Counted from the first letter of the stretch, positions 29,886 through 52,823 are shown. The stretch is DNA of 64,000 bases from Alphaproteobacteria bacterium (GCA_015062485.1 SUUO01000005.1:658-64657), one strand, 5' to 3'. Notes: a model not told the origin generated them from the sequence alone. A program made the numbers and translations.

Positions 29886-30449
29886 TTAAAAACTGTAAGT
29901 TAAACCCAATCCATAAAACGCATAAGAATTATTTTCCGGCGCCGTATTGCCATTTGAAAAATGATGTGCAAAAACCTCGACCGATGTGCATTCAGATATA
30001 TGGTATCCCGCCCCCAGTTTAAAGCCAAAAATTAACTTGGAACCAATGCGTTCGTTCTGTTGCGCCTGGAATCCGGCGCCAAACCCGATAAAGGTATACC
30101 AATCATCACCATACAATGGTGACACATCCATACTTAACATTGCGATTGGAATAGTATATTTATCCCAATGCCAACCGTACTTTGATCCGTGCCCCAGGGT
30201 CTGGATAACGTTCAATGATTGCCGCGCCGCCACACCAAAGAATGTCGCATTTTGCGAATATTGCAAATGAAACATATTAAACGGCACAAATTGCGATGGT
30301 GCCGGGATTAGGAAGCCGTGATTTACCCCATATCCAAAATTAAAAGCAACCTGATTTTCATATCCATTAAGGAACGGATTAACACATTCGGCCCGTGCGA
30401 CATTTGTCGTCATAACCAAACCACACAAAGCATATAAAATTTTTCTCAT
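29886..30449 (-). CDS. PagL-like lipid A deacylase / acyloxyacyl hydrolase beta-barrel
   Basis: Signal peptide, an 8-strand barrel pattern, the H.FSNG catalytic motif (HHFSNGN), and a terminal YSF. Confidence 0.65.
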   Translation of the reverse strand: MRKILYALCGLVMTTNVARAECVNPFLNGYENQVAFNFGYGVNHGFLIPAPSQFVPFNMFHLQYSQNATFFGVAARQSLNVIQTLGHGSKYGWHWDKYTIPIAMLSMDVSPLYGDDWYTFIGFGAGFQAQQNERIGSKLIFGFKLGAGYHISECTSVEVFAHHFSNGNTAPENNSYAFYGLGLTYSF

Positions 30450-30549
30450 AAAGCCTATGATAGCACAATTTGGTCAGGCATTCAATTATAAAATATTAAA
30501 AAAATTAAAGATTGTAAAGATGAACGAATTCCCAAATATATTTTGTTGC

Positions 30550-30577
30550 TTGCAATCCTAAAAAAGTCTGTTATAAT
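30550..30577 (+). promoter_or_regulatory. Sigma70-type promoter of the tRNA(CAU) gene
   Basis: TTGCAA-16 nt-TATAAT, ending 11 nt before the tRNA 5' end. Confidence 0.65.
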
Positions 30578-30588
30578 GCGTTTCGCTT

Positions 30589-30663
30589 GGCAGCGTAGCT
30601 CAGTGGTAGAGCAGAGGAATCATAATCCTTTGGTCGGGGGTCCGAATCCCTCCGCTGCTACCA
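30589..30663 (+). tRNA. tRNA with CAU anticodon (Ile2/lysidine-type or elongator Met)
   Basis: Manual fold: GGCAGCG acceptor, D arm GCUC-AGUGGUA-GAGC, anticodon loop AUCAUAA, variable UGGUC, T arm GGGGG-UCCGAAU-CCCUC, CCA. The variable region resembles E. coli ileX. Confidence 0.8.
30619..30645 (+). repeat. Left copy of the 27-nt direct repeat (inside the tRNA)
   Basis: atcataatcctttggtcgggggtccga. Confidence 0.95.
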
Positions 30664-30668
30664 GAATT

Positions 30669-30691
30669 TCCCGGTGTTCCGGGATTTTTTA
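30669..30691 (+). terminator. tRNA terminator
   Basis: tcccgg/ccggga stem followed by a T6 run. Confidence 0.75.
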
Positions 30692-30852
30692 TTTTGTAAA
30701 AATTTTCCGATTTTGTCCGAATTTGTCGATTTTAGCAGATTGTTTTACATATACTGGACATAACTTTGGACATAGAAAATATGTTTACATGCGTAATCCT
30801 TTTGCCTGTTTTACACTATGAATTATAAAGGGGAATACACAGAAAGTCGCGG

Positions 30853-30909
30853 CAAAAGGTTGCAAAGGATGACAAAGGGTTACAAAGGGGTATGATGCTT
30901 TACAAAAGC
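30853..30909 (+). repeat. Five CAAA(A)GG motifs phased at exactly 10 bp
   Basis: The C of each motif falls at 30853, 30863, 30873, 30883 and 30903. An inverted copy, ccttttgcc, lies at 30798-30806. Confidence 0.85.
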
Positions 30910-30956
30910 AATATAAACGTAATTAAATGTTTTTTGTGTGAATGCTAAAATAGCGC

Positions 30957-30998
30957 TTGACTTTTTGTATCCGTTTGGATACAATACGGATGTATAAT
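30957..30998 (+). promoter_or_regulatory. Predicted promoter with palindromic operator for the toxin-antitoxin operon
   Basis: TTGACT (30957-62)-17 nt-TACAAT (30980-85). The palindrome GTATCC-GTTT-GGATAC (30967-82) sits in the spacer, and GGATGTATA repeats lie downstream. Confidence 0.5.
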
Positions 30999-31066
30999 AA
31001 AGCAAAAGGATGTATATGAGGAAGACAACGTAGGGGCTGGACGTTATCAGCCGGGAGTAAAAGAAA

Positions 31067-31360
31067 ATGTTAATAAAGCAGACAACAGAATATGTAAAAT
31101 GGTTTGATAAATTAAAAGATTCCGAAGCGCAGTTTAGGATAAGCACAAGGATAGATCGCATCGCAACACAAAATCATTTTGGTGATTTTAAGCCGGTTGG
31201 TGATGGGATTTATGAATTGCGAATAAATTATGGTCCTGGATATAGGGTTTATTATACGAGGCAAGGTGAAGAAATTATCTTGTTGCTGATTGGGGGCGAC
31301 AAATCGACGCAACAGTCAGATATTGAAAAGGCCAAGAACATATTGGCAACACTACCGTAG
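31067..31360 (+). CDS. RelE/ParE-superfamily addiction-module killer protein (HigB-like)
   Basis: 97 aa; ...FDKL.D..A..RI..RIDR......GD.KPVGDGIYELRI.YGPGYRVYY...G..IILLL.GGDKS.Q..DIEKA; GGAG RBS. Confidence 0.85.
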   Translation: MLIKQTTEYVKWFDKLKDSEAQFRISTRIDRIATQNHFGDFKPVGDGIYELRINYGPGYRVYYTRQGEEIILLLIGGDKSTQQSDIEKAKNILATLP

Positions 31361-31411
31361 ACGTAGGATGTCATCGGTTAGTAGATAACAAATTACTCAA
31401 AGGAGTAAATC

Positions 31412-31732
31412 ATGAAAAAAGGGAGTAACAAGATAACAGAATGGAATATTCTGGATTATCTTAAAACAGAAGAAGATATTGCTAACTATCTAGAAGCTGC
31501 ATTAGAAGAAAATGATATTGAGTATTTTTTAATAGCCCTTGGAAATGTTGCAAAGGCACGTAGCATAAATAAAATAGCAAAAGAAATAGGGGTAGGACGC
31601 GAATCTTTGTATAAAAGTTTCTCTGGTGCACGTCGTCCAAATGTAGAAACTGTTTTTAAAGCAATAGATGCGTTGGGTTTAAAAGTTAATTTTACACCTA
31701 AAAGTACATATAATCAAAGTGTAGCAGCATAA
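31412..31732 (+). CDS. Addiction-module antidote protein with HTH (HigA-like)
   Basis: 106 aa; ...YL..AL.E.D......AL.NVAKARS...IAKE.GV.RESLYK.....RP...TV.K...ALGL. Confidence 0.85.
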   Translation: MKKGSNKITEWNILDYLKTEEDIANYLEAALEENDIEYFLIALGNVAKARSINKIAKEIGVGRESLYKSFSGARRPNVETVFKAIDALGLKVNFTPKSTYNQSVAA

Positions 31733-31736
31733 TATA

Positions 31737-31760
31737 CCGCCCGTTTTGGGCGGTTTTTTG
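31737..31760 (+). terminator. Intrinsic terminator
   Basis: ccgccc/gggcgg stem followed by a T6 run. Confidence 0.75.
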
Positions 31761-31817
31761 TATATTGTGTTTATGATTAAATTCTGATACTATTATACTT
31801 GTATAAAGAGGTGTATT

Positions 31818-32600
31818 ATGAAGATTCCCGCAAAGTTTATAAAAAGAGCAAATGAACAATTAAAAAAGTATCAGGTTATTGTTAGAAAATTAAAAAGACA
31901 AGAAGTTAATGAGACGGATACAGTTAAAGTTATTAACGATATTTTTGCGGATCTTTTTGGATATGATAAATATACCGAAATAACTAGTGAATATGCAATT
32001 CGTGGAACATTTTGTGATTTGGCAATAAAGCAACAAAGTGGTAAGATTTACATGTTAGTAGAAGCAAAAGGGGTGTCTATTCCTTTAAAGGAAAATCATA
32101 TTAAACAGGCTACAGATTACGGTGTTAATCATGGAACAAAGTGGGTTGTATTAACAAATTCTGTAGATTGGAAGGTTTATAAAATTAAATACAGTCAACC
32201 AATAGAACGAGAATTGGTTTTTGAATTCAATTTATTAGACATGGATTTAAAAAAAGAAAAACAACTTGAGGTTGTTTTTGCTCTTAGTAAAGAAGGACAG
32301 GATCTTTCTGTAATAGATGAGATTTATTCAAATAATCAAGTGAAAAATAAGTATGTCCTTGCGGGGTTGATAGATAGTCCTGAGATATATAAGCTTATAA
32401 AAAAACAAATAAAGCTGTATTTTGAAAATAGTATCAAAATAACAGATGAAGAGATTTCTAATTTTATAAAGTTTGATATATTTAAGCGAGAGGTTTGGGA
32501 TAGTGATGAGGCGAAAGAATATCAAAAGGTTTTGAAAAAGATGATTAAAAAAGCGGAAAAAAAGAAACAATTATCTGTTACAAAACAAGGTGTGCAATAA
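31818..32600 (+). CDS. HsdR-N-type (PF13588-like) PD-(D/E)xK nuclease-fold protein with a Lys-rich helical tail
   Basis: NETDTVKVINDIF.DLFGYD...E.....G.FCDLAI......MLVEAKG......H..QATDYG...G.KWVVLTNSVDW.VY. RBS is aagagg. Confidence 0.6.
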   Translation: MKIPAKFIKRANEQLKKYQVIVRKLKRQEVNETDTVKVINDIFADLFGYDKYTEITSEYAIRGTFCDLAIKQQSGKIYMLVEAKGVSIPLKENHIKQATDYGVNHGTKWVVLTNSVDWKVYKIKYSQPIERELVFEFNLLDMDLKKEKQLEVVFALSKEGQDLSVIDEIYSNNQVKNKYVLAGLIDSPEIYKLIKKQIKLYFENSIKITDEEISNFIKFDIFKREVWDSDEAKEYQKVLKKMIKKAEKKKQLSVTKQGVQ

Positions 32601-32610
32601 AATAATATAA

Positions 32611-32644
32611 AAATAAAGGAGCGCCATACGGCGCTCCTTTATTT
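32611..32644. terminator. Bidirectional terminator with a 15-bp stem, shared by convergent island genes
   Basis: aaataaaggagcgcc-atac-ggcgctcctttattt. Confidence 0.85.
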
Positions 32645-35600
32645 ACTCTCTTGTTCTATAAACTTTTTTAATTTAATAACTTCCCTGTCTTTCGATCTAA
32701 ACCAACTTGTTGACCATATTCTATAGAATTTATATCCATAGCTTTCTAGAATTTTTTGACGCTGCATATCTTCTGCAAACGCTTCTTCAGAGCCATGATA
32801 TGCTTTCCCGTCACATTCCAGAGCTATATCCTTGCCGCCAACTTTCAACAAAAAGTCAAGTCTATATCCCCCAACTTTGTATTGAGGCTTAATAGCATCT
32901 TGTGGCAGTATTTTTAATAACTCTTCATACACTTCTTCTTCAAATGGCGATTCTGTTAATCCTTCAGCGGAACTATTTGTATCACGTCTAGGTGTTTCAT
33001 AAGAGTATTCTTTTATCGTTTTTAAAACGGTATCTACTGTTGCAAGATCGCCAAGTGCATGTGCTTTCACATAGGCTAAGTAAGCATAAAATATAGCTAT
33101 GCGGTTGTTTTCCTGCTTTTCTTCTAATCTGGATTTATAGTCAGCAAATTTCATCTCTGGAATTGAGGTCACTAAAAACAGTTGCTGTTTTGCTCGTGTT
33201 ATAAGTACATTAAGCAGCCTATATCCTTCATCCCTATTTATAACAAACTGTTCTTTAAACTTACCGTCATGAGCAGGTCCGTATGTTGTGGAAATAATGA
33301 TAATATCTCTTTCGTCACCTTGGATATTTTCTAGATTCTTTACAAACAAAGGATCTTTATGTTGTTCCAGTTCTGCATATATCTTTGCGAATTCTGTATC
33401 TTCTGCTGCAACCTCATGTAACATCAATTTAATTAAATTGCGTTGCTGCACATTAAATGTTGCAATACCAACAGATGGCAGTTTCCCAGGATACATGGTA
33501 GGCAATGCTTTTATTATCTCAATAACTTTATATGCCTCCTTTTCATTCATTCTATCTGCATACACACCATCAACATGGTAATATGTAAATGGGGTATTTG
33601 TAGCAATGCGTGCAGGCAATGGACACAAATTACAGCCATAAAAAGCGCAATTTGAAAACTCAATCAATGCAGGATGCTTACTTCTGTAATGGAAATCTAA
33701 ATAAGAAGCAAATTCTTTGACATTTTTAAAGCTCTCTGCGTATTCAAGTAAAGATTCTGAGTCAAGTGGCGCCAAATCAAAACCGTCGCCATCATCATCG
33801 TTTCCATCAACGTTCCCTCCATCCATATTTTTTGCAAACCAGTTAGACGGAGGCATCTGATGTTTATCTCCTGCTATGATTTTATATTGTCCACGTATCA
33901 TTGAGGTGTAAACATCTTCTATTCTTAACTGACTGGCCTCATCAAATATCACCAGATTAAACAGCCCTTGTTTTAATGGAAGCAAGGCATTCGCAACAAT
34001 TGGGTTAACCATTATTACGGGGAATAAATCAGTAAATGCGTCAAACTCTTTGTCAATAATTTGTCTCAAAGATAGTTTCTTAGCGTATTTTCCTCTTTTT
34101 AATGCAAACAATGTTTTGAAACCATATTTACTATCCAGGGTCGCAATTGCATTTTCTCGTTCATAATACCAAGTTTTAAAGATTTTTTTCGTATTATTCT
34201 TTTGTAGTTTTATAAACAACTCTCTCAATGAGGCCAATTCTGGCTCTTTTGCAGATGTTAAAAACTGTTTCTTTGTCTTTTTGGCATGATTTAACAAGAA
34301 GTAATAATAATAAACAGCTTGGAATAAATCTTCCCAATAAGAATCATCCTGCTCAAGCAAAAGAGAATCAAACAACACTACATCTCTTTTATACTCTTGT
34401 AGCCATGAAATATATATTTCTAACTCATCAAGTTTCTCTAACAACGAAACTAGCTTTGTCTTAATTTTTTCCGCACACTCTTTAGCACCTTGGGTTGTTC
34501 TATAATCAAAATCCTTTGCTACAACACCATTAAAACTATTAGCAACAGTATCCTTTACCTCTTCGTAAATCTGTTGGCCTGCCACTATAGAGTTTAATAT
34601 ATTGTGCAGATTATCTACTTCAGATACACGTTCTTTAAGCTTATTTTGTATATCTTCTAGTTCTAATGCCAGATTTTTCTGTCGTGCATGCAAATCCGCG
34701 CTTATATCATTTACATTGCTTTCAATATCAGCTAAATGAGATCTGATATGTTCATAAATTAGATTTTGAGTATTTTTGGTTTGAATAGAAACGTTTTCTG
34801 CTTCTTTCTTGATCGATAGCAGGGCAGCACTTTCACAGTCATTATACGAACAAAAATCTCCATATTTTGTTGTATACTCATCTATTTTTCTTAACAACTG
34901 CTTGTAATTCTTACGTACTTTTTTTGCATATTTATGACTTTCTGAAAGCTTTTTAGAGAAAAGCCTTGTTACAATATTTGAATTATAAGCATTAAAATCT
35001 TCCCCAAGTATTTCAATTCCTTCTGCAAAAGCCTCTTGAATATCTTCTACATCATCCAAAATAGAATAGAGTCTTCTAAGCTTATCCTTAACATTTTCAT
35101 CTAACTGCATACTTTCGCATTTGCAATTAAATCTTCTGGCAACAGTAAGTATATCTTCACATAACGCTCCTGCGCTTTTAATCCAATCAGCCAGATTATC
35201 TTTACTTTCTGTTATTATATTGTGTTTATTTTGCAATTCGCTTAATTTTACCAGACATTCGCGCATAGCATTATCAAAATGTTGTACACTTTGAATTTTT
35301 CCTTTATCTACAATTGGTAGCAAATCAATATCCTTGCCACAAGACTTTGAAACGATAGATAGTTGATTGTTTATTTCGGCAATCATATCAACAAATTCTT
35401 GTTTTTTACCTACACTCAATAATTTTGAAGCGTTTGTGGAGTTTGCCTTTATTTCATTACAAATCCCCAAGGACTTGGATAGTTTATCAGTCTTGGTATA
35501 CATGGATGTTGTGCCAATATCTAAGATTGTATTATCAATAAAGTTGATAAGCTTATTGATATGCTTTACGGCAACATCTATATTCTTTTCAATCAAAATT

Positions 35601-37162
35601 TTTCCACTAACAGATAAATCGATTTCTTTATCCAAATTAAACAAGTCAAACGAGGTTGTATCTATATGCTTGCAGGCGGAATGTGTTTCTGCCCCCCGTT
35701 TGACCAAATTACAATAATTTACAAATTCTGCAGAATTAAATTCCCAACCTGTGGCTACATGCTCCAGATTATCTCTAATTGATGCAAAGGCATCACGTTT
35801 GGATTTCTTTAAGAACAAACCAATCAAATCAGACCATGTTTTTTGTTCAAAAATAGGTTCGCTAGAAGCTTTGTATGAAGCGTTAATCGAATCTCTTAAT
35901 CTATTAAAATTTTCTTGATCTCTTTCAAACTCCACTTCATTAAATGCTTTGGTCGGATTGTATTGCTGTAAAGCACGTGCTTTGTCGACCACAGCTCTGC
36001 GGTCTTTGTTAACATCATCAACAACTATACAAAAAGTGTCTAAACCCTTTTCCGACAAATTGTGTTTCAATACGTCTAATGCAGTTTTCTTCTCACAGAC
36101 AACCAATGTCTTGGCACCATTTGCCAGTGCGTTAGAAATGATCGCTGAGATTGCCTGACTCTTACCTGTCCCCGGAGGCCCTTGAATAATCTTAAACTCA
36201 TTGTCATTTAGAGTTCTTATTATTTCTTCTTGACTAGGATCTGTATCAAAGGAAGCCTCAGATGAAGTAGAAAAACGCTCTAACTCCATATCTTCCGCAT
36301 TAAACTGATCTATATTTTTTTGTAATTCTAAAACGGATTCTATAATGGTTTCTTTTTGTGAACGAAAAAGCCCAAAGACCCCAGACCACTGAACAAAACC
36401 ATTACCAGAGCATAATTTTTCCAAATGCTCTTTTGTGCCAACAGGTTCCAATTTCAGAGACAGATCGTCAAATTTTATATTCAATTTCTTCAATATATCC
36501 TTCAGATACTTTTGTATTTCATTTTCTTGAAGTATCCCATCGTCAATATCTTCTATATCCAGGCGTTCCAATTGAAGTTTTTCTGAATTCTCAATGTACG
36601 ACATTAAAATTTCATTCATTTTGATTGGACTATCTTCGTTTTTTGAAATAATCCACTCATTTTTACGGTTAGACTTTCTGATATCCAGCGACCACAAGAA
36701 CAAAGGAGCTACGATAGTCTTTTTTTCATCTTTCTTGTCTGGCAATACCAGCAATGGATACCCAAAGGCAAAATTTTTCAGTCCGGTATCAATAAAAGAA
36801 TCTTCGTTATCTATAGCCATAGAATCTAGGCGCTTTCCAACGATAACAAGCCTGTCTTTTATTTCTGCGTCCATACTGGTTAATTTCTTGTCTTCCCAAG
36901 AAAATCGGAAATCAAATTTATCTTTAGTCAATAGAGTTTCTAAAAACTTCTTTGCATATGTATCTTTTTTTGTTTTTGATGTGTCAGAAAACAAATCTAA
37001 ATCTGGTTCTACGTTGGCTATAGATAAGTCGCATAAATCTAATCTGTTTTTTAGTCGACCAGGCACAGCCATCAAATGTATTGGCGTACGTCCAACCAAG
37101 CCGGTTAATTTCTTATAAATGCCTTCCAAAAACTTTTTATCAAATTTTATTTGTGACTTCAT
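32639..37162 (-). CDS. Giant DUF4011-like / SF1 (Upf1-DNA2-type) helicase / DUF559-Vsr-like endonuclease fusion protein
   Basis: Motifs: GPPGTGKSQ, VIFDEASQL, IAGDKHQMPP, FHYRSKHPALIEFSN, GDERDIIIIS, VLITRAKQQLFLV, and C-terminal GGYRLDFLL..DIALECDGKAYH. The ATG at 37162 has a GGAG RBS. Confidence 0.8.
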   Translation of the reverse strand: MKSQIKFDKKFLEGIYKKLTGLVGRTPIHLMAVPGRLKNRLDLCDLSIANVEPDLDLFSDTSKTKKDTYAKKFLETLLTKDKFDFRFSWEDKKLTSMDAEIKDRLVIVGKRLDSMAIDNEDSFIDTGLKNFAFGYPLLVLPDKKDEKKTIVAPLFLWSLDIRKSNRKNEWIISKNEDSPIKMNEILMSYIENSEKLQLERLDIEDIDDGILQENEIQKYLKDILKKLNIKFDDLSLKLEPVGTKEHLEKLCSGNGFVQWSGVFGLFRSQKETIIESVLELQKNIDQFNAEDMELERFSTSSEASFDTDPSQEEIIRTLNDNEFKIIQGPPGTGKSQAISAIISNALANGAKTLVVCEKKTALDVLKHNLSEKGLDTFCIVVDDVNKDRRAVVDKARALQQYNPTKAFNEVEFERDQENFNRLRDSINASYKASSEPIFEQKTWSDLIGLFLKKSKRDAFASIRDNLEHVATGWEFNSAEFVNYCNLVKRGAETHSACKHIDTTSFDLFNLDKEIDLSVSGKILIEKNIDVAVKHINKLINFIDNTILDIGTTSMYTKTDKLSKSLGICNEIKANSTNASKLLSVGKKQEFVDMIAEINNQLSIVSKSCGKDIDLLPIVDKGKIQSVQHFDNAMRECLVKLSELQNKHNIITESKDNLADWIKSAGALCEDILTVARRFNCKCESMQLDENVKDKLRRLYSILDDVEDIQEAFAEGIEILGEDFNAYNSNIVTRLFSKKLSESHKYAKKVRKNYKQLLRKIDEYTTKYGDFCSYNDCESAALLSIKKEAENVSIQTKNTQNLIYEHIRSHLADIESNVNDISADLHARQKNLALELEDIQNKLKERVSEVDNLHNILNSIVAGQQIYEEVKDTVANSFNGVVAKDFDYRTTQGAKECAEKIKTKLVSLLEKLDELEIYISWLQEYKRDVVLFDSLLLEQDDSYWEDLFQAVYYYYFLLNHAKKTKKQFLTSAKEPELASLRELFIKLQKNNTKKIFKTWYYERENAIATLDSKYGFKTLFALKRGKYAKKLSLRQIIDKEFDAFTDLFPVIMVNPIVANALLPLKQGLFNLVIFDEASQLRIEDVYTSMIRGQYKIIAGDKHQMPPSNWFAKNMDGGNVDGNDDDGDGFDLAPLDSESLLEYAESFKNVKEFASYLDFHYRSKHPALIEFSNCAFYGCNLCPLPARIATNTPFTYYHVDGVYADRMNEKEAYKVIEIIKALPTMYPGKLPSVGIATFNVQQRNLIKLMLHEVAAEDTEFAKIYAELEQHKDPLFVKNLENIQGDERDIIIISTTYGPAHDGKFKEQFVINRDEGYRLLNVLITRAKQQLFLVTSIPEMKFADYKSRLEEKQENNRIAIFYAYLAYVKAHALGDLATVDTVLKTIKEYSYETPRRDTNSSAEGLTESPFEEEVYEELLKILPQDAIKPQYKVGGYRLDFLLKVGGKDIALECDGKAYHGSEEAFAEDMQRQKILESYGYKFYRIWSTSWFRSKDREVIKLKKFIEQESK

Positions 37163-37187
37163 GATAAACTCCGACACTATTTCTTTA

Positions 37188-37216
37188 ATTATACAATATA
37201 TATTCCTAATAATCAA
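37188..37216 (-). promoter_or_regulatory. Sigma70-type promoter of the helicase-nuclease gene
   Basis: On the minus strand, TTGATT-17 nt-TATAAT, ending about 25 nt before the ATG at 37162. Confidence 0.6.
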
Positions 37217-37477
37217 TTATTCCAGGCTAGGTTAATGAAACTGTATATATTTGTATTTGGTATGATTAAGTAGGGGTAAAAACTTTACATAGAAAAATGG
37301 TTAAAAAATGGCGGAAATGTGAGTGGTATAGCGATTTTTGTTAAAGTGAATTTTGTATTTAATATGATTAACGCTTATGGACAATTTTACATATTCTAGA
37401 CATAGAAAATTGGTGTGCTGTGGAAAGTGGCGGATTTCTGCGGGGTGCGTGAGGGAAAATACTTTGTGCGCTGGTAT

Positions 37478-37504
37478 ATCATAATCCTTTGGTCGGGGGT
37501 CCGA
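37478..37504 (+). repeat. Right copy of the 27-nt direct repeat
   Basis: Identical to 30619-30645. Confidence 0.95.
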
Positions 37505-37599
37505 CAAAAAAGCAGGTTTTGCAAGTGTAACGCAGCGAAACCGTTGCGATTTGGAAATGAGCCCATCGCGGCACATTTATGTGACGGATGGGAATACAC

Positions 37600-37651
37600 A
37601 ATCCCTCGGGCAGCTACCAAAATTCAAACCGCCAGATTAGGCGGTATTTTT
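37600..37651 (+). other. Possible degenerate relic of a tRNA 3' end plus terminator
   Basis: aatccctc...gctacca-aaattc resembles the intact tRNA at 30645-30670 (aatccctc...gctacca-gaattt). A ccgcc/ggcgg hairpin and T-run follow. Confidence 0.4.
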
Positions 37652-37655
37652 ATAG

Positions 37656-37904
37656 TTATTTCTGTTTTGTATATGATGGGCAATGTTTTCTTGCTAATTC
37701 GTGTGCTTGGGCAATCAACATAGGTATATAAATTTGACGTGTAAAATCACTGTCAATTTGTATCTCCATTGTTGCCAACAATGGATTTAACTTTGCATAT
37801 GTTCCTGCTGGTCTGCCACAGTTATGATAACGTGTAATTATCTTTATCTCACATTTACTTTCACATCCTTCACAATAATACCTGGCTTCTTGTTCAGATG
37901 ACAT
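37656..37904 (-). CDS. Hypothetical Cys-rich small protein (82 aa)
   Basis: CEGCESKC...HNC cluster. No family recognised. Confidence 0.35.
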   Translation of the reverse strand: MSSEQEARYYCEGCESKCEIKIITRYHNCGRPAGTYAKLNPLLATMEIQIDSDFTRQIYIPMLIAQAHELARKHCPSYTKQK

Positions 37905-38059
37905 TTGTGTTCCCTTTTATTTTCACACAATAAGCATATAATAAAATATTTTTTTGTCAAACATTATATCATAAAAACTTACCCTTCACACTCTTGCACG
38001 GTTGACTTTTTTTTAGATATTCTCTAATATGTACACGATATATGCGAAAGGGGATTTTT

Positions 38060-38557
38060 ATGCATAAATTGTTTGCGACTTTATTTGCGTTTTTACCGTT
38101 TGGGGCACTGGCAAATCCGGCGTGTCCCGTATGCACAATTGCGGTTGGTGCGGGATTGGATATTGCGCGTCGTCTGGGGGTTCCGGACAGTATTGTCGGC
38201 CTGTGGGCGGGGGCGCTGTTGACGTTGTTGGGTTATTGGATGCTGAAATGGATGGATAAAAAGAATTGGCATTTCCGTGGTCGCGATACAATTGTAATCT
38301 TGTTATCTGTGGCGATGATTGGTTTCGTGTATATGGGCGCGGTGGAATATGCACCAACATCGATTTGCGGAATGTTTACAATGGATCCGGTTTTGTTTGG
38401 TACAATCTGTGGTGCGTTGATATTTATCGGTACCGGAAAACTGTATCAATGGATGAAGAATAAAAACGGTGGTCACGCACACTTTCCGTTTGAAAAGGTG
38501 GTGTTGCCGATTGTCGCACTGGCCATTGCAAGTTGGTTGATGATGATTTGTTTCTAA
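38060..38557 (+). CDS. Hypothetical integral membrane protein (about 4 TM)
   Basis: Signal-like N-terminus with a CPVC motif and four hydrophobic segments. Confidence 0.5.
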   Translation: MHKLFATLFAFLPFGALANPACPVCTIAVGAGLDIARRLGVPDSIVGLWAGALLTLLGYWMLKWMDKKNWHFRGRDTIVILLSVAMIGFVYMGAVEYAPTSICGMFTMDPVLFGTICGALIFIGTGKLYQWMKNKNGGHAHFPFEKVVLPIVALAIASWLMMICF

Positions 38558-52727: not shown

Positions 52728-52746
52728 ACAATTTTATAAAAAATCT

Positions 52747-52823
<77 letters not shown>

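Follow-up and report, generated by a model that had tools for sequence, protein, structure and literature searches.

A 64,000-nucleotide stretch of an alphaproteobacterial genome (Alphaproteobacteria bacterium, GCA_015062485.1 SUUO01000005.1:658-64657), referred to here as the window and numbered from its first letter, encodes a protein of 1,507 amino acids (aa) in which an Upf1-like superfamily 1 (SF1) helicase is joined to a C-terminal nuclease. We propose that this large gene is a single-gene defence candidate resembling Hhe, carried as cargo on an island of 6.86 kb that lacks an integrase and lies at the 3' end of a tRNA-Met gene, and we assign this reading a probability of about 0.7. The product is most likely an anti-phage or anti-plasmid effector, a role suggested by its homology to Hhe together with its genomic context.

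A sequence-only reading of the same DNA had placed the large gene in an uncharacterised two-gene defence module, together with a convergent gene encoding a 260-aa nuclease. The gene coordinates given in that reading are upheld, every motif string that it quoted is present in the translations, and the Pfam domains that it anticipated were found: AAA_11, AAA_12 and MTES_1575/DUF559 on the large protein, and HSDR_N_2 on the small one. Neither the pairing of the two genes nor the novelty of the architecture survived the analysis described below.

Architecture and conservation of the large protein

The largest open reading frame (ORF) of the region, 32639-37216 on the minus strand, ends with a stop codon at 32639-32641 and yields 1,507 aa when counted from its first ATG, at 37162. 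A TTG at 37216 lies within the -35 hexamer of a promoter-like site (TTGATT-17-TATAAT), and a GGAG is found 8 nucleotides 5' of the ATG; the choice of the ATG at 37162 as the start in the sequence-only reading is therefore correct. The near-consensus promoter claimed at this position is a match to the consensus only; promoter-like sites are not enriched over shuffled sequence in the region (33 observed vs. 32.6 expected), so that the call is supported by position and not by statistics. The gene and its parts, with the evidence for each, are as follows.

32639-37162, minus strand: large gene, 1,507-aa helicase-nuclease (ORF, translation, Pfam/PADLOC/NCBIfam matches, homologues, ratio of nonsynonymous to synonymous substitution rates, dN/dS)
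37188-37216, minus strand: promoter-like site TTGATT-17-TATAAT, 5' of the large gene (consensus match only)
36248-37162, minus strand: N-terminal domain, aa 1-305, family-specific, marginally DUF4011-like (Pfam, AlphaFold2 (AF2) model, profile search)
35963-36247, minus strand: N-terminal part of helicase domain 1A, including the Walker A motif GPPGTGKS (K334) (AAA_11/AAA_19, invariant columns, PDB sequence matches)
34163-35962, minus strand: long insertion of low conservation in helicase domain 1A, ~aa 401-1000 (consensus mostly undefined; low Pro+Gly)
33128-34162, minus strand: rest of the helicase core, with motif II DEAS, motif III GDxxQxPP and AAA_12 domain 2A containing QGDE and TRA (AAA_12, invariant residues, Hhe alignment)
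32657-32944, minus strand: C-terminal Vsr-like PD-(D/E)xK nuclease (MTES_1575/DUF559), aa 1407-1502 (MTES_1575, conserved columns, Hhe alignment)

Pfam models match both ends of the helicase and the nuclease: AAA_11 at residues 309-388 (E = 5e-11), AAA_12 at residues 1137-1332 (E = 3.5e-17), MTES_1575 at residues 1407-1502 (E = 3.8e-24) and DUF559 at residues 1425-1494 (20.9 bits vs. a cut-off of 20.6), with AAA_19 also matching the first part of domain 1A. In an alignment of 32 diverse family members (34-83% identity), the Walker A columns Q327-Q336 (including K334) are invariant, as are D1074 and E1075 of motif II, G1098, D1099 and Q1102 of motif III, the QGDE at 1281-1284, the TRA at 1322-1324, motif VI, and D1436, E1449 and D1451 of the nuclease, while nuclease residue H1456 is conserved in at least 90% of the aligned sequences. 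These Pfam matches and invariant motifs bear out the description of the protein as an Upf1/DNA2-type SF1 core with a C-terminal Vsr-like nuclease. Sequence matches to PDB entries are confined to the Walker A region (IGHMBP2, Sen1 and Upf1) and TIGR00376 (the IGHMBP2 family) also matches the protein, so the Upf1-like SF1 assignment stands. The dN/dS of the gene is 0.06, whether it is compared with an 83%-identical or a 99%-identical homologue; its catalytic motifs are intact and it is under strong purifying selection.

The helicase is split by an insertion of ~600-740 aa, 740 residues separating K334 of Walker A from D1074 of motif II, and conservation is poor between about residues 450 and 940. 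The insertion had been described as ~600 aa long and Lys/Glu-rich; its length is confirmed, but it is not especially rich in these residues (19.0% vs. 18.5% for the whole protein). It is low in Pro+Gly (3.3% vs. 6.4%).

The N-terminal region had been credited with a DUF4011-like signature. Pfam does detect DUF4011 at residues 107-188, covering only the last half of the profile, but the match is marginal, at 22.1 bits just below the cut-off of 22.2; a precomputed PF13195 match is present in some relatives. Alignment of the N-terminal domain family against the Hhe N-terminus with hhalign gave a probability of 0.2, which is not significant. An AF2 model of the domain is of moderate confidence (predicted local distance difference test, pLDDT, of 77), and Foldseek found no fold match to it in the PDB (best E = 1.1). 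A profile of the domain retrieved 490 cluster representatives (at 50% identity) among 1.84 billion proteins, and in full-length proteins the domain nearly always occupies the N-terminus of a protein of ~1,150-1,760 aa. The domain is a signature of the large-protein family and not a broadly shared module.

Relatives of the large protein and its proposed role

Among profiles of defence proteins, PADLOC PDC-S37 (PDLC05009) matches the large protein in two stretches (E = 9.6e-137, 455.8 bits), the better of which aligns residues 625-1505 with profile positions 498-1341 of 1550. The NCBIfam ProA model (NF058533) gives 456.8 bits in a single stretch (residues 137-1504 vs. profile positions 485-1705 of 1903), below its equivalog cut-off of 1500, and the NCBIfam Hhe model (Hhe_antiphage, NF042953) gives 330.4 bits in three stretches, below its equivalog cut-off of 2000. 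PADLOC Hhe (PDLC02194) matches with E = 4.7e-81, and PADLOC MkoA and MkoC match the helicase core only, at about E = 1e-25. All 32 of the relatives sampled score similarly and fall below both the ProA and the Hhe cut-offs (the relative closest to Hhe has E = 4.5e-101), which suggests that the clade as a whole is a sister group of the modelled families and that the large protein is not a stray member of one of them. On these profile comparisons, we place it in what appears to be a separate clade, sister to the helicase-nucleases Hhe, PDC-S37 and ProA. Its architecture, which the sequence-only reading had called an uncharacterised combination, is already catalogued under those three names; PDC-S37 is, we presume from the ‘S’ in its PADLOC name, a single-gene candidate.

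For direct comparison we used an Hhe protein of 1,893 aa, named as such by PGAP and encoded on a Klebsiella plasmid. BLASTP aligned it with the large protein at 26% identity over residues 780-1497 and at 33% over residues 305-428 (the Walker A region), the ECDG nuclease motif (E1449) being aligned with the ECDG of Hhe. The two proteins are colinear in domain order, which, together with the PADLOC and NCBIfam Hhe matches, substantiates the link to Hhe made in the sequence-only reading. Hhe is reported to be active against lambda, T3, T7 and PhiV-1, and defence is abolished by mutation of the nuclease glutamate (bioRxiv 10.1101/2022.06.16.496414). Our literature search found no description of the mechanism of an Hhe-type protein.

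If the large protein acts as we propose, it would engage the nucleic acid of an invading phage or plasmid, probably through its N-terminal domain and insertion; ATP-driven translocation by the Upf1-like (SF1B) motor would follow, and the Vsr-like domain would then nick or cleave, aborting replication of the invader. The substrate (DNA or RNA), the polarity of translocation and the trigger are elements of this scheme that we infer.

Homologues of the large protein are numerous (more than 1,900 matches with E ≤ 1e-10 among the candidates scored), are mostly 1,300-1,540 aa in length, and come from Candidate Phyla Radiation (CPR) bacteria, Bacteroidota, Alphaproteobacteria and Asgard archaea, a patchy distribution over distant phyla. 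The family is scarcely represented in viruses, with 1 weak match among 50,697 phage records and three clear matches in IMG/VR, where it is rare; 441 plasmid records match, mostly bona fide Hhe proteins of Klebsiella and Ralstonia with less than 60% identity. One close homologue is surrounded by Mrr, GmrSD, HicAB, DUF3800 and two EcoRI-type methylases in a classic defence island, another adjoins HipBA with an integrase further along, and others adjoin serine recombinases. The 55 immediate neighbours at 20 genome loci of the family are mostly ordinary genes, and include JetC/JetD (Wadjet), type I and type IV restriction endonucleases, bSEFIR, a GajB-like protein, WYL and PDC-S06. No conserved neighbour gene was found in 24 full-length loci, and the flanking ORFs of six loci (L081, L083, L084, L086, L057 and L001) showed no mutual similarity and no conserved small partner ORF.

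Several points weigh against a defence role modelled on Hhe. The equivalog cut-offs for both ProA (456.8 vs. 1500) and Hhe (330 vs. 2000) were missed; function would be transferred across 26-33% identity from an Hhe that lies outside this clade; PDC-S37 is itself a candidate system, and our literature search found no paper describing PDC-S37, ProA or PLuB. How the protein senses its target is guesswork, since no structural analogue of the N-terminal domain was found. The defence-neighbourhood signal of the family is moderate and drawn from a small sample, and nearest neighbours in Bacteroidota genomes are mostly ordinary metabolic genes.

This last observation would suit a protein that serves the mobile element or the host (in maintenance of the island or of a plasmid, recombination, repair or resolving replication conflicts; compare the DNA2- and Upf1-like helicase-nucleases) and not immunity. 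The same role would accord with a helicase core nearest to IGHMBP2, Sen1 and Upf1, and with the report that, in Pseudomonas aeruginosa, a defence hotspot is flanked by a large DUF4011 gene belonging to the conserved core genome (PMC10250203). We consider it unlikely, however, given the scattered occurrence of the family from CPR bacteria to Asgard archaea, the position of the gene on a recently transferred, AT-rich island, the presence of relatives in defence islands or recombinase-bearing elements, and an architecture like that of the experimentally active Hhe.

A further alternative keeps the single-gene defence function but directs it at RNA, as has been proposed for the Upf1-like CnuH of CoCoNuT systems. 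Upf1-like helicases act on RNA as well as single-stranded DNA, the helicase core also matches MkoA/MkoC of Mokosh, and CnuH likewise has a large insertion after Walker A, with RNA targeting predicted for type III-B, where it is fused to a Vsr-like nuclease (PMC11090510). The RNA targeting of CoCoNuT is, however, itself only predicted, and neither an McrB/McrC homologue nor a cold-shock or other RNA-binding domain was found in the window. Vsr and DUF559-type nucleases, moreover, are known as DNA endonucleases, and we judge an RNA target distinctly unlikely.

The tRNA-Met island and the adjacent nuclease gene

The single-gene, Hhe-like reading that we favour makes the large gene one of several passengers on a mobile island, whose other features are listed here.

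30589-30663, plus strand: tRNA-Met (CAT), the target of integration, whose 3' part (30619-30645) serves as the left direct repeat
31067-31732, plus strand: type II toxin-antitoxin pair, comprising a RelE/ParE-type HI1419 toxin (31067-31360) and an HI1420 helix-turn-helix antidote (31412-31732)
31736-31754: terminator-like hairpin after the toxin-antitoxin pair
31818-32600, plus strand: small gene, 260-aa solitary HsdR-N-type PD-(D/E)xK nuclease (HSDR_N_2, invariant residues, AF2, Foldseek, dN/dS)
32611-32644, both strands: hairpin with a perfect 15-bp stem between the convergent genes (terminator-like score on both strands)
37478-37504, plus strand: right direct repeat, matching the 3' part of tRNA-Met perfectly over 27 bp; right boundary of the island

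The perfect 27-bp direct repeat of the tRNA gene (30619-30645 and 37478-37504) sets the bounds of the 6.86-kb island, and the blastn match to related contigs stops exactly at 37504. GC content falls to 0.31-0.36 across 31-38 kb, vs. ~0.43-0.47 in the flanks. An AT-rich island in a tRNA gene, next to a toxin-antitoxin pair, had been recognised from the sequence, and both elements are confirmed: the adjacent toxin and antitoxin genes score well above the cut-offs of their models (TIGR02683, 129.2 vs. 62.85; TIGR02684, 103.8 vs. 53.7). There is no integrase-like ORF on the island, and the only non-coding RNA found in 30000-38500 was the tRNA.

Related contigs (L087-L090) carry the same island, with the toxin-antitoxin pair, small gene and large gene, at 97% identity, whereas their core flanks are only 79-80% identical; when the window is compared with L087, synonymous divergence (dS) amounts to 0.08 in the large gene and 0.035 in the small one. 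The island must therefore be much younger than its surroundings. Three of these contigs (L087-L089) have a second island in tandem, with a similar left end of ~280 bp (88% identity), different cargo and a further copy of the tRNA 3' end; in L087 (15660-18040) this cargo consists of ORFs of 232 aa and 310 aa, and neither island has an integrase.

Some further observations concern the integration site. The tRNA-Met site (window 30619-30927 and 37345-37504) behaves as a hotspot for short islands that lack an integrase and have related ends. At 37600-37645, some 95 bp past the right direct repeat, the sequence AATCCCTCGGGCAGCTACCA followed by a hairpin (37628-37645) resembles the degenerate remnant of an older tRNA 3' end together with its terminator, and this stretch is 92.6% identical in L087. 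When the window was searched crudely by tblastn for four recombinases of related loci, none was found; the sole match was 20 aa over a second tRNA-Met gene at ~52.7 kb (match 52741-52800, overlapping the gene at 52747-52823, minus strand) and came from the end of the serine recombinase ORF of L086. At the end of its contig, that ORF probably continues into a tRNA-Met gene, a hint that the L086 element too targets tRNA-Met.

The small gene encodes, as had been suggested, a protein with an HsdR-N-type nuclease fold. HSDR_N_2 matches residues 61-127 (E = 4.4e-10), within a nuclease core at ~aa 45-140 that is followed by a helical C-terminal domain (aa 147-259), and D67, E82-x-K84 and Q97xxxY101 (the D...ExK and QxxxY motifs) are invariant in 34 homologues. 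AF2 models the protein with high confidence (pLDDT 91.9), and in Foldseek the model comes closest to the nuclease domains of BpuSI, an HsdR fragment (3h1t), DrdV and BsaXI; a sequence search of the family against solved structures gave nothing meaningful. The dN/dS of the gene is 0.10-0.14. Neither HsdM nor HsdS is encoded near it in the window, and there is no methylase or specificity gene on the island.

The large and small genes are convergent, lie 38 bp apart and have a hairpin in common. The shared bidirectional terminator with a 15-bp stem reported for this junction is the hairpin at 32611-32644, terminator-like on both strands, whose right arm overlaps the last codon and the stop codon of the large gene. 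Two genes converging on one hairpin are separate transcription units.

Whether the two families occur together was assessed at genome loci of the large family by seeking the small gene within 8 kb. The small gene was detected at none of the 80 genome loci and none of the 35 viral loci of the large family, and is absent from the loci of the three closest large-gene homologues (83%, 63% and 45% identity). Conversely, the large gene was found at none of 80 metagenome loci of the small family (54 of them with 500 bp or more of sequence downstream, 60 with as much upstream) and at none of 80 viral loci, in a search able to pick up terminal fragments of only 80 aa. One other co-localisation came to light, in L081, where proteins 44% (large) and 57% (small) identical to those of the window are again encoded by convergent genes, within a prophage-like region and with a 130-aa gene between them. 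That single exception apart, the predicted co-occurrence of the 260-aa and 1,507-aa families was not seen.

It is thus very unlikely that the helicase-nuclease and the 260-aa nuclease form a two-gene defence module acting together. Such a module would be in keeping with the close convergent arrangement and common hairpin, with the retention of the pair at 97% identity on the island of related contigs, and with the presence of both genes, in the same orientation, in L081. Convergent genes are not co-transcribed, however; a third gene intervenes in L081, closer homologues of the large gene (83%, 63% and 45%) dispense with the small one, and relatives of the small gene stand alone between nrdDG and lgt, beside HsdM/HsdS, or at prophage ends. 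The co-occurrence counts (0/80 genome and 0/35 viral large-family loci, 0/160 small-family loci), together with the convergent orientation, led us to reject the module, since the families do not co-occur beyond this lineage. We interpret the adjacency as that of two independent cargo genes co-located on mobile DNA, and the small gene is a neighbour and not a conserved partner of the large one. The cargo of the island is accordingly three independent units (toxin-antitoxin pair, small nuclease and large gene) that travel together, not one system.

A more speculative possibility, which we hold to be very doubtful, is that the small nuclease was recruited in a gut-type alphaproteobacterial lineage as an accessory (a second effector or a sensor). 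The result would be a two-component variant confined to that lineage, of which the window and L081 would be the two instances seen. Independently of this, the tRNA-Met site might be a hotspot at which short integrase-less cassettes that share their ends build up in tandem and are moved in trans.

The 130-aa gene (L081 12321-12713; L082 6028-6420) follows the large gene on the same strand, separating it from the small gene. A precomputed record gives it a weak NTF2_3 match; a Pfam scan at E ≤ 0.001 found nothing, and the gene has no counterpart in the window.

The surroundings of the small family are varied. Its metagenome neighbours are heterogeneous; elsewhere, relatives are found alone between nrdDG and lgt, and in L180 one borders a ParB-methylase and a terminase at the end of a prophage, genes that also adjoin the small gene in L081. 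In L091 (3061-7021), a 69%-identical homologue immediately precedes type I genes for HsdM and HsdS, with a resolvase gene upstream and no HsdR within the 11.8 kb examined. The sole recurrent neighbour is a ~260-aa Ion_trans-type channel protein, present at 6 of 80 metagenome loci (L095 10819-11598, L157 10855-11637, L112, L118, L138 and L164); in two of them its gene begins at the stop codon of the small gene, and the pair could be a separate two-gene unit. The small family is also common on viral contigs, 86 IMG/VR stretches encoding a relative (L217-L296).

Significance and comparison with known systems

This analysis maps what appears to be a distinct and fairly small sister clade of Hhe / PDC-S37 / ProA, amounting to ~490 clusters at 50% identity as judged by the N-terminal profile. 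The clade is not named by current curated equivalog models, and its N-terminal domain is without a known structural analogue; at 1,507 aa, this shorter version could suit biochemistry or cryo-EM. The island also offers a caution: two genes of a small island may be adjacent and share a terminator without forming a system, and here co-occurrence counts cleanly part them.

Of the known systems, Hhe provides the closest parallel in organisation. Its order of a DUF4011-type region, AAA_11, long insertion, AAA_12 and MTES_1575 corresponds to that of the large protein, in which the DUF4011 match is marginal, and each is encoded by a single gene, without a conserved partner, on mobile DNA. They differ in length (1,893 aa in Hhe vs. 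1,507 aa), in ~110 N-terminal and ~120 C-terminal Hhe residues that are absent from the large protein, and in the strength of the DUF4011 match (128.9 bits in Hhe vs. 22.1). ProA and PDC-S37 are the best-scoring models for the large protein, but the ProA profile, at 1,903 positions, is ~400 longer, with ~480 positions before and ~200 after the matched stretch, and the score of the large protein is under one third of the cut-off of 1500.

CnuH of CoCoNuT systems, an Upf1-like helicase whose Walker A is followed by a large helical insertion, is fused in type III-B to a Vsr-like nuclease, and is nearly always encoded with the McrB/McrC-type CnuB and CnuC (PMC11090510). Compared by published description, and in architecture only, the large protein resembles type III-B CnuH in its Upf1-like SF1 helicase, large insertion after Walker A and fused Vsr-like nuclease; it differs in that the McrB/McrC-type CnuB/CnuC genes are absent here: the island, whose genes were those scanned with domain models, carries none besides the toxin-antitoxin pair, the 260-aa nuclease gene and the large gene. 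Mokosh shares the helicase core, which matches MkoA/MkoC, but its nuclease is of the PLD family, and a Pfam scan of the large protein detected no PLD domain. The small protein, for its part, corresponds to the N-terminal nuclease domain of HsdR and of type IIG/IIL enzymes (HSDR_N_2, D...ExK, QxxxY and predicted fold); in contrast to these enzymes, it stands alone, without a motor (SF2), methylase or specificity domain.

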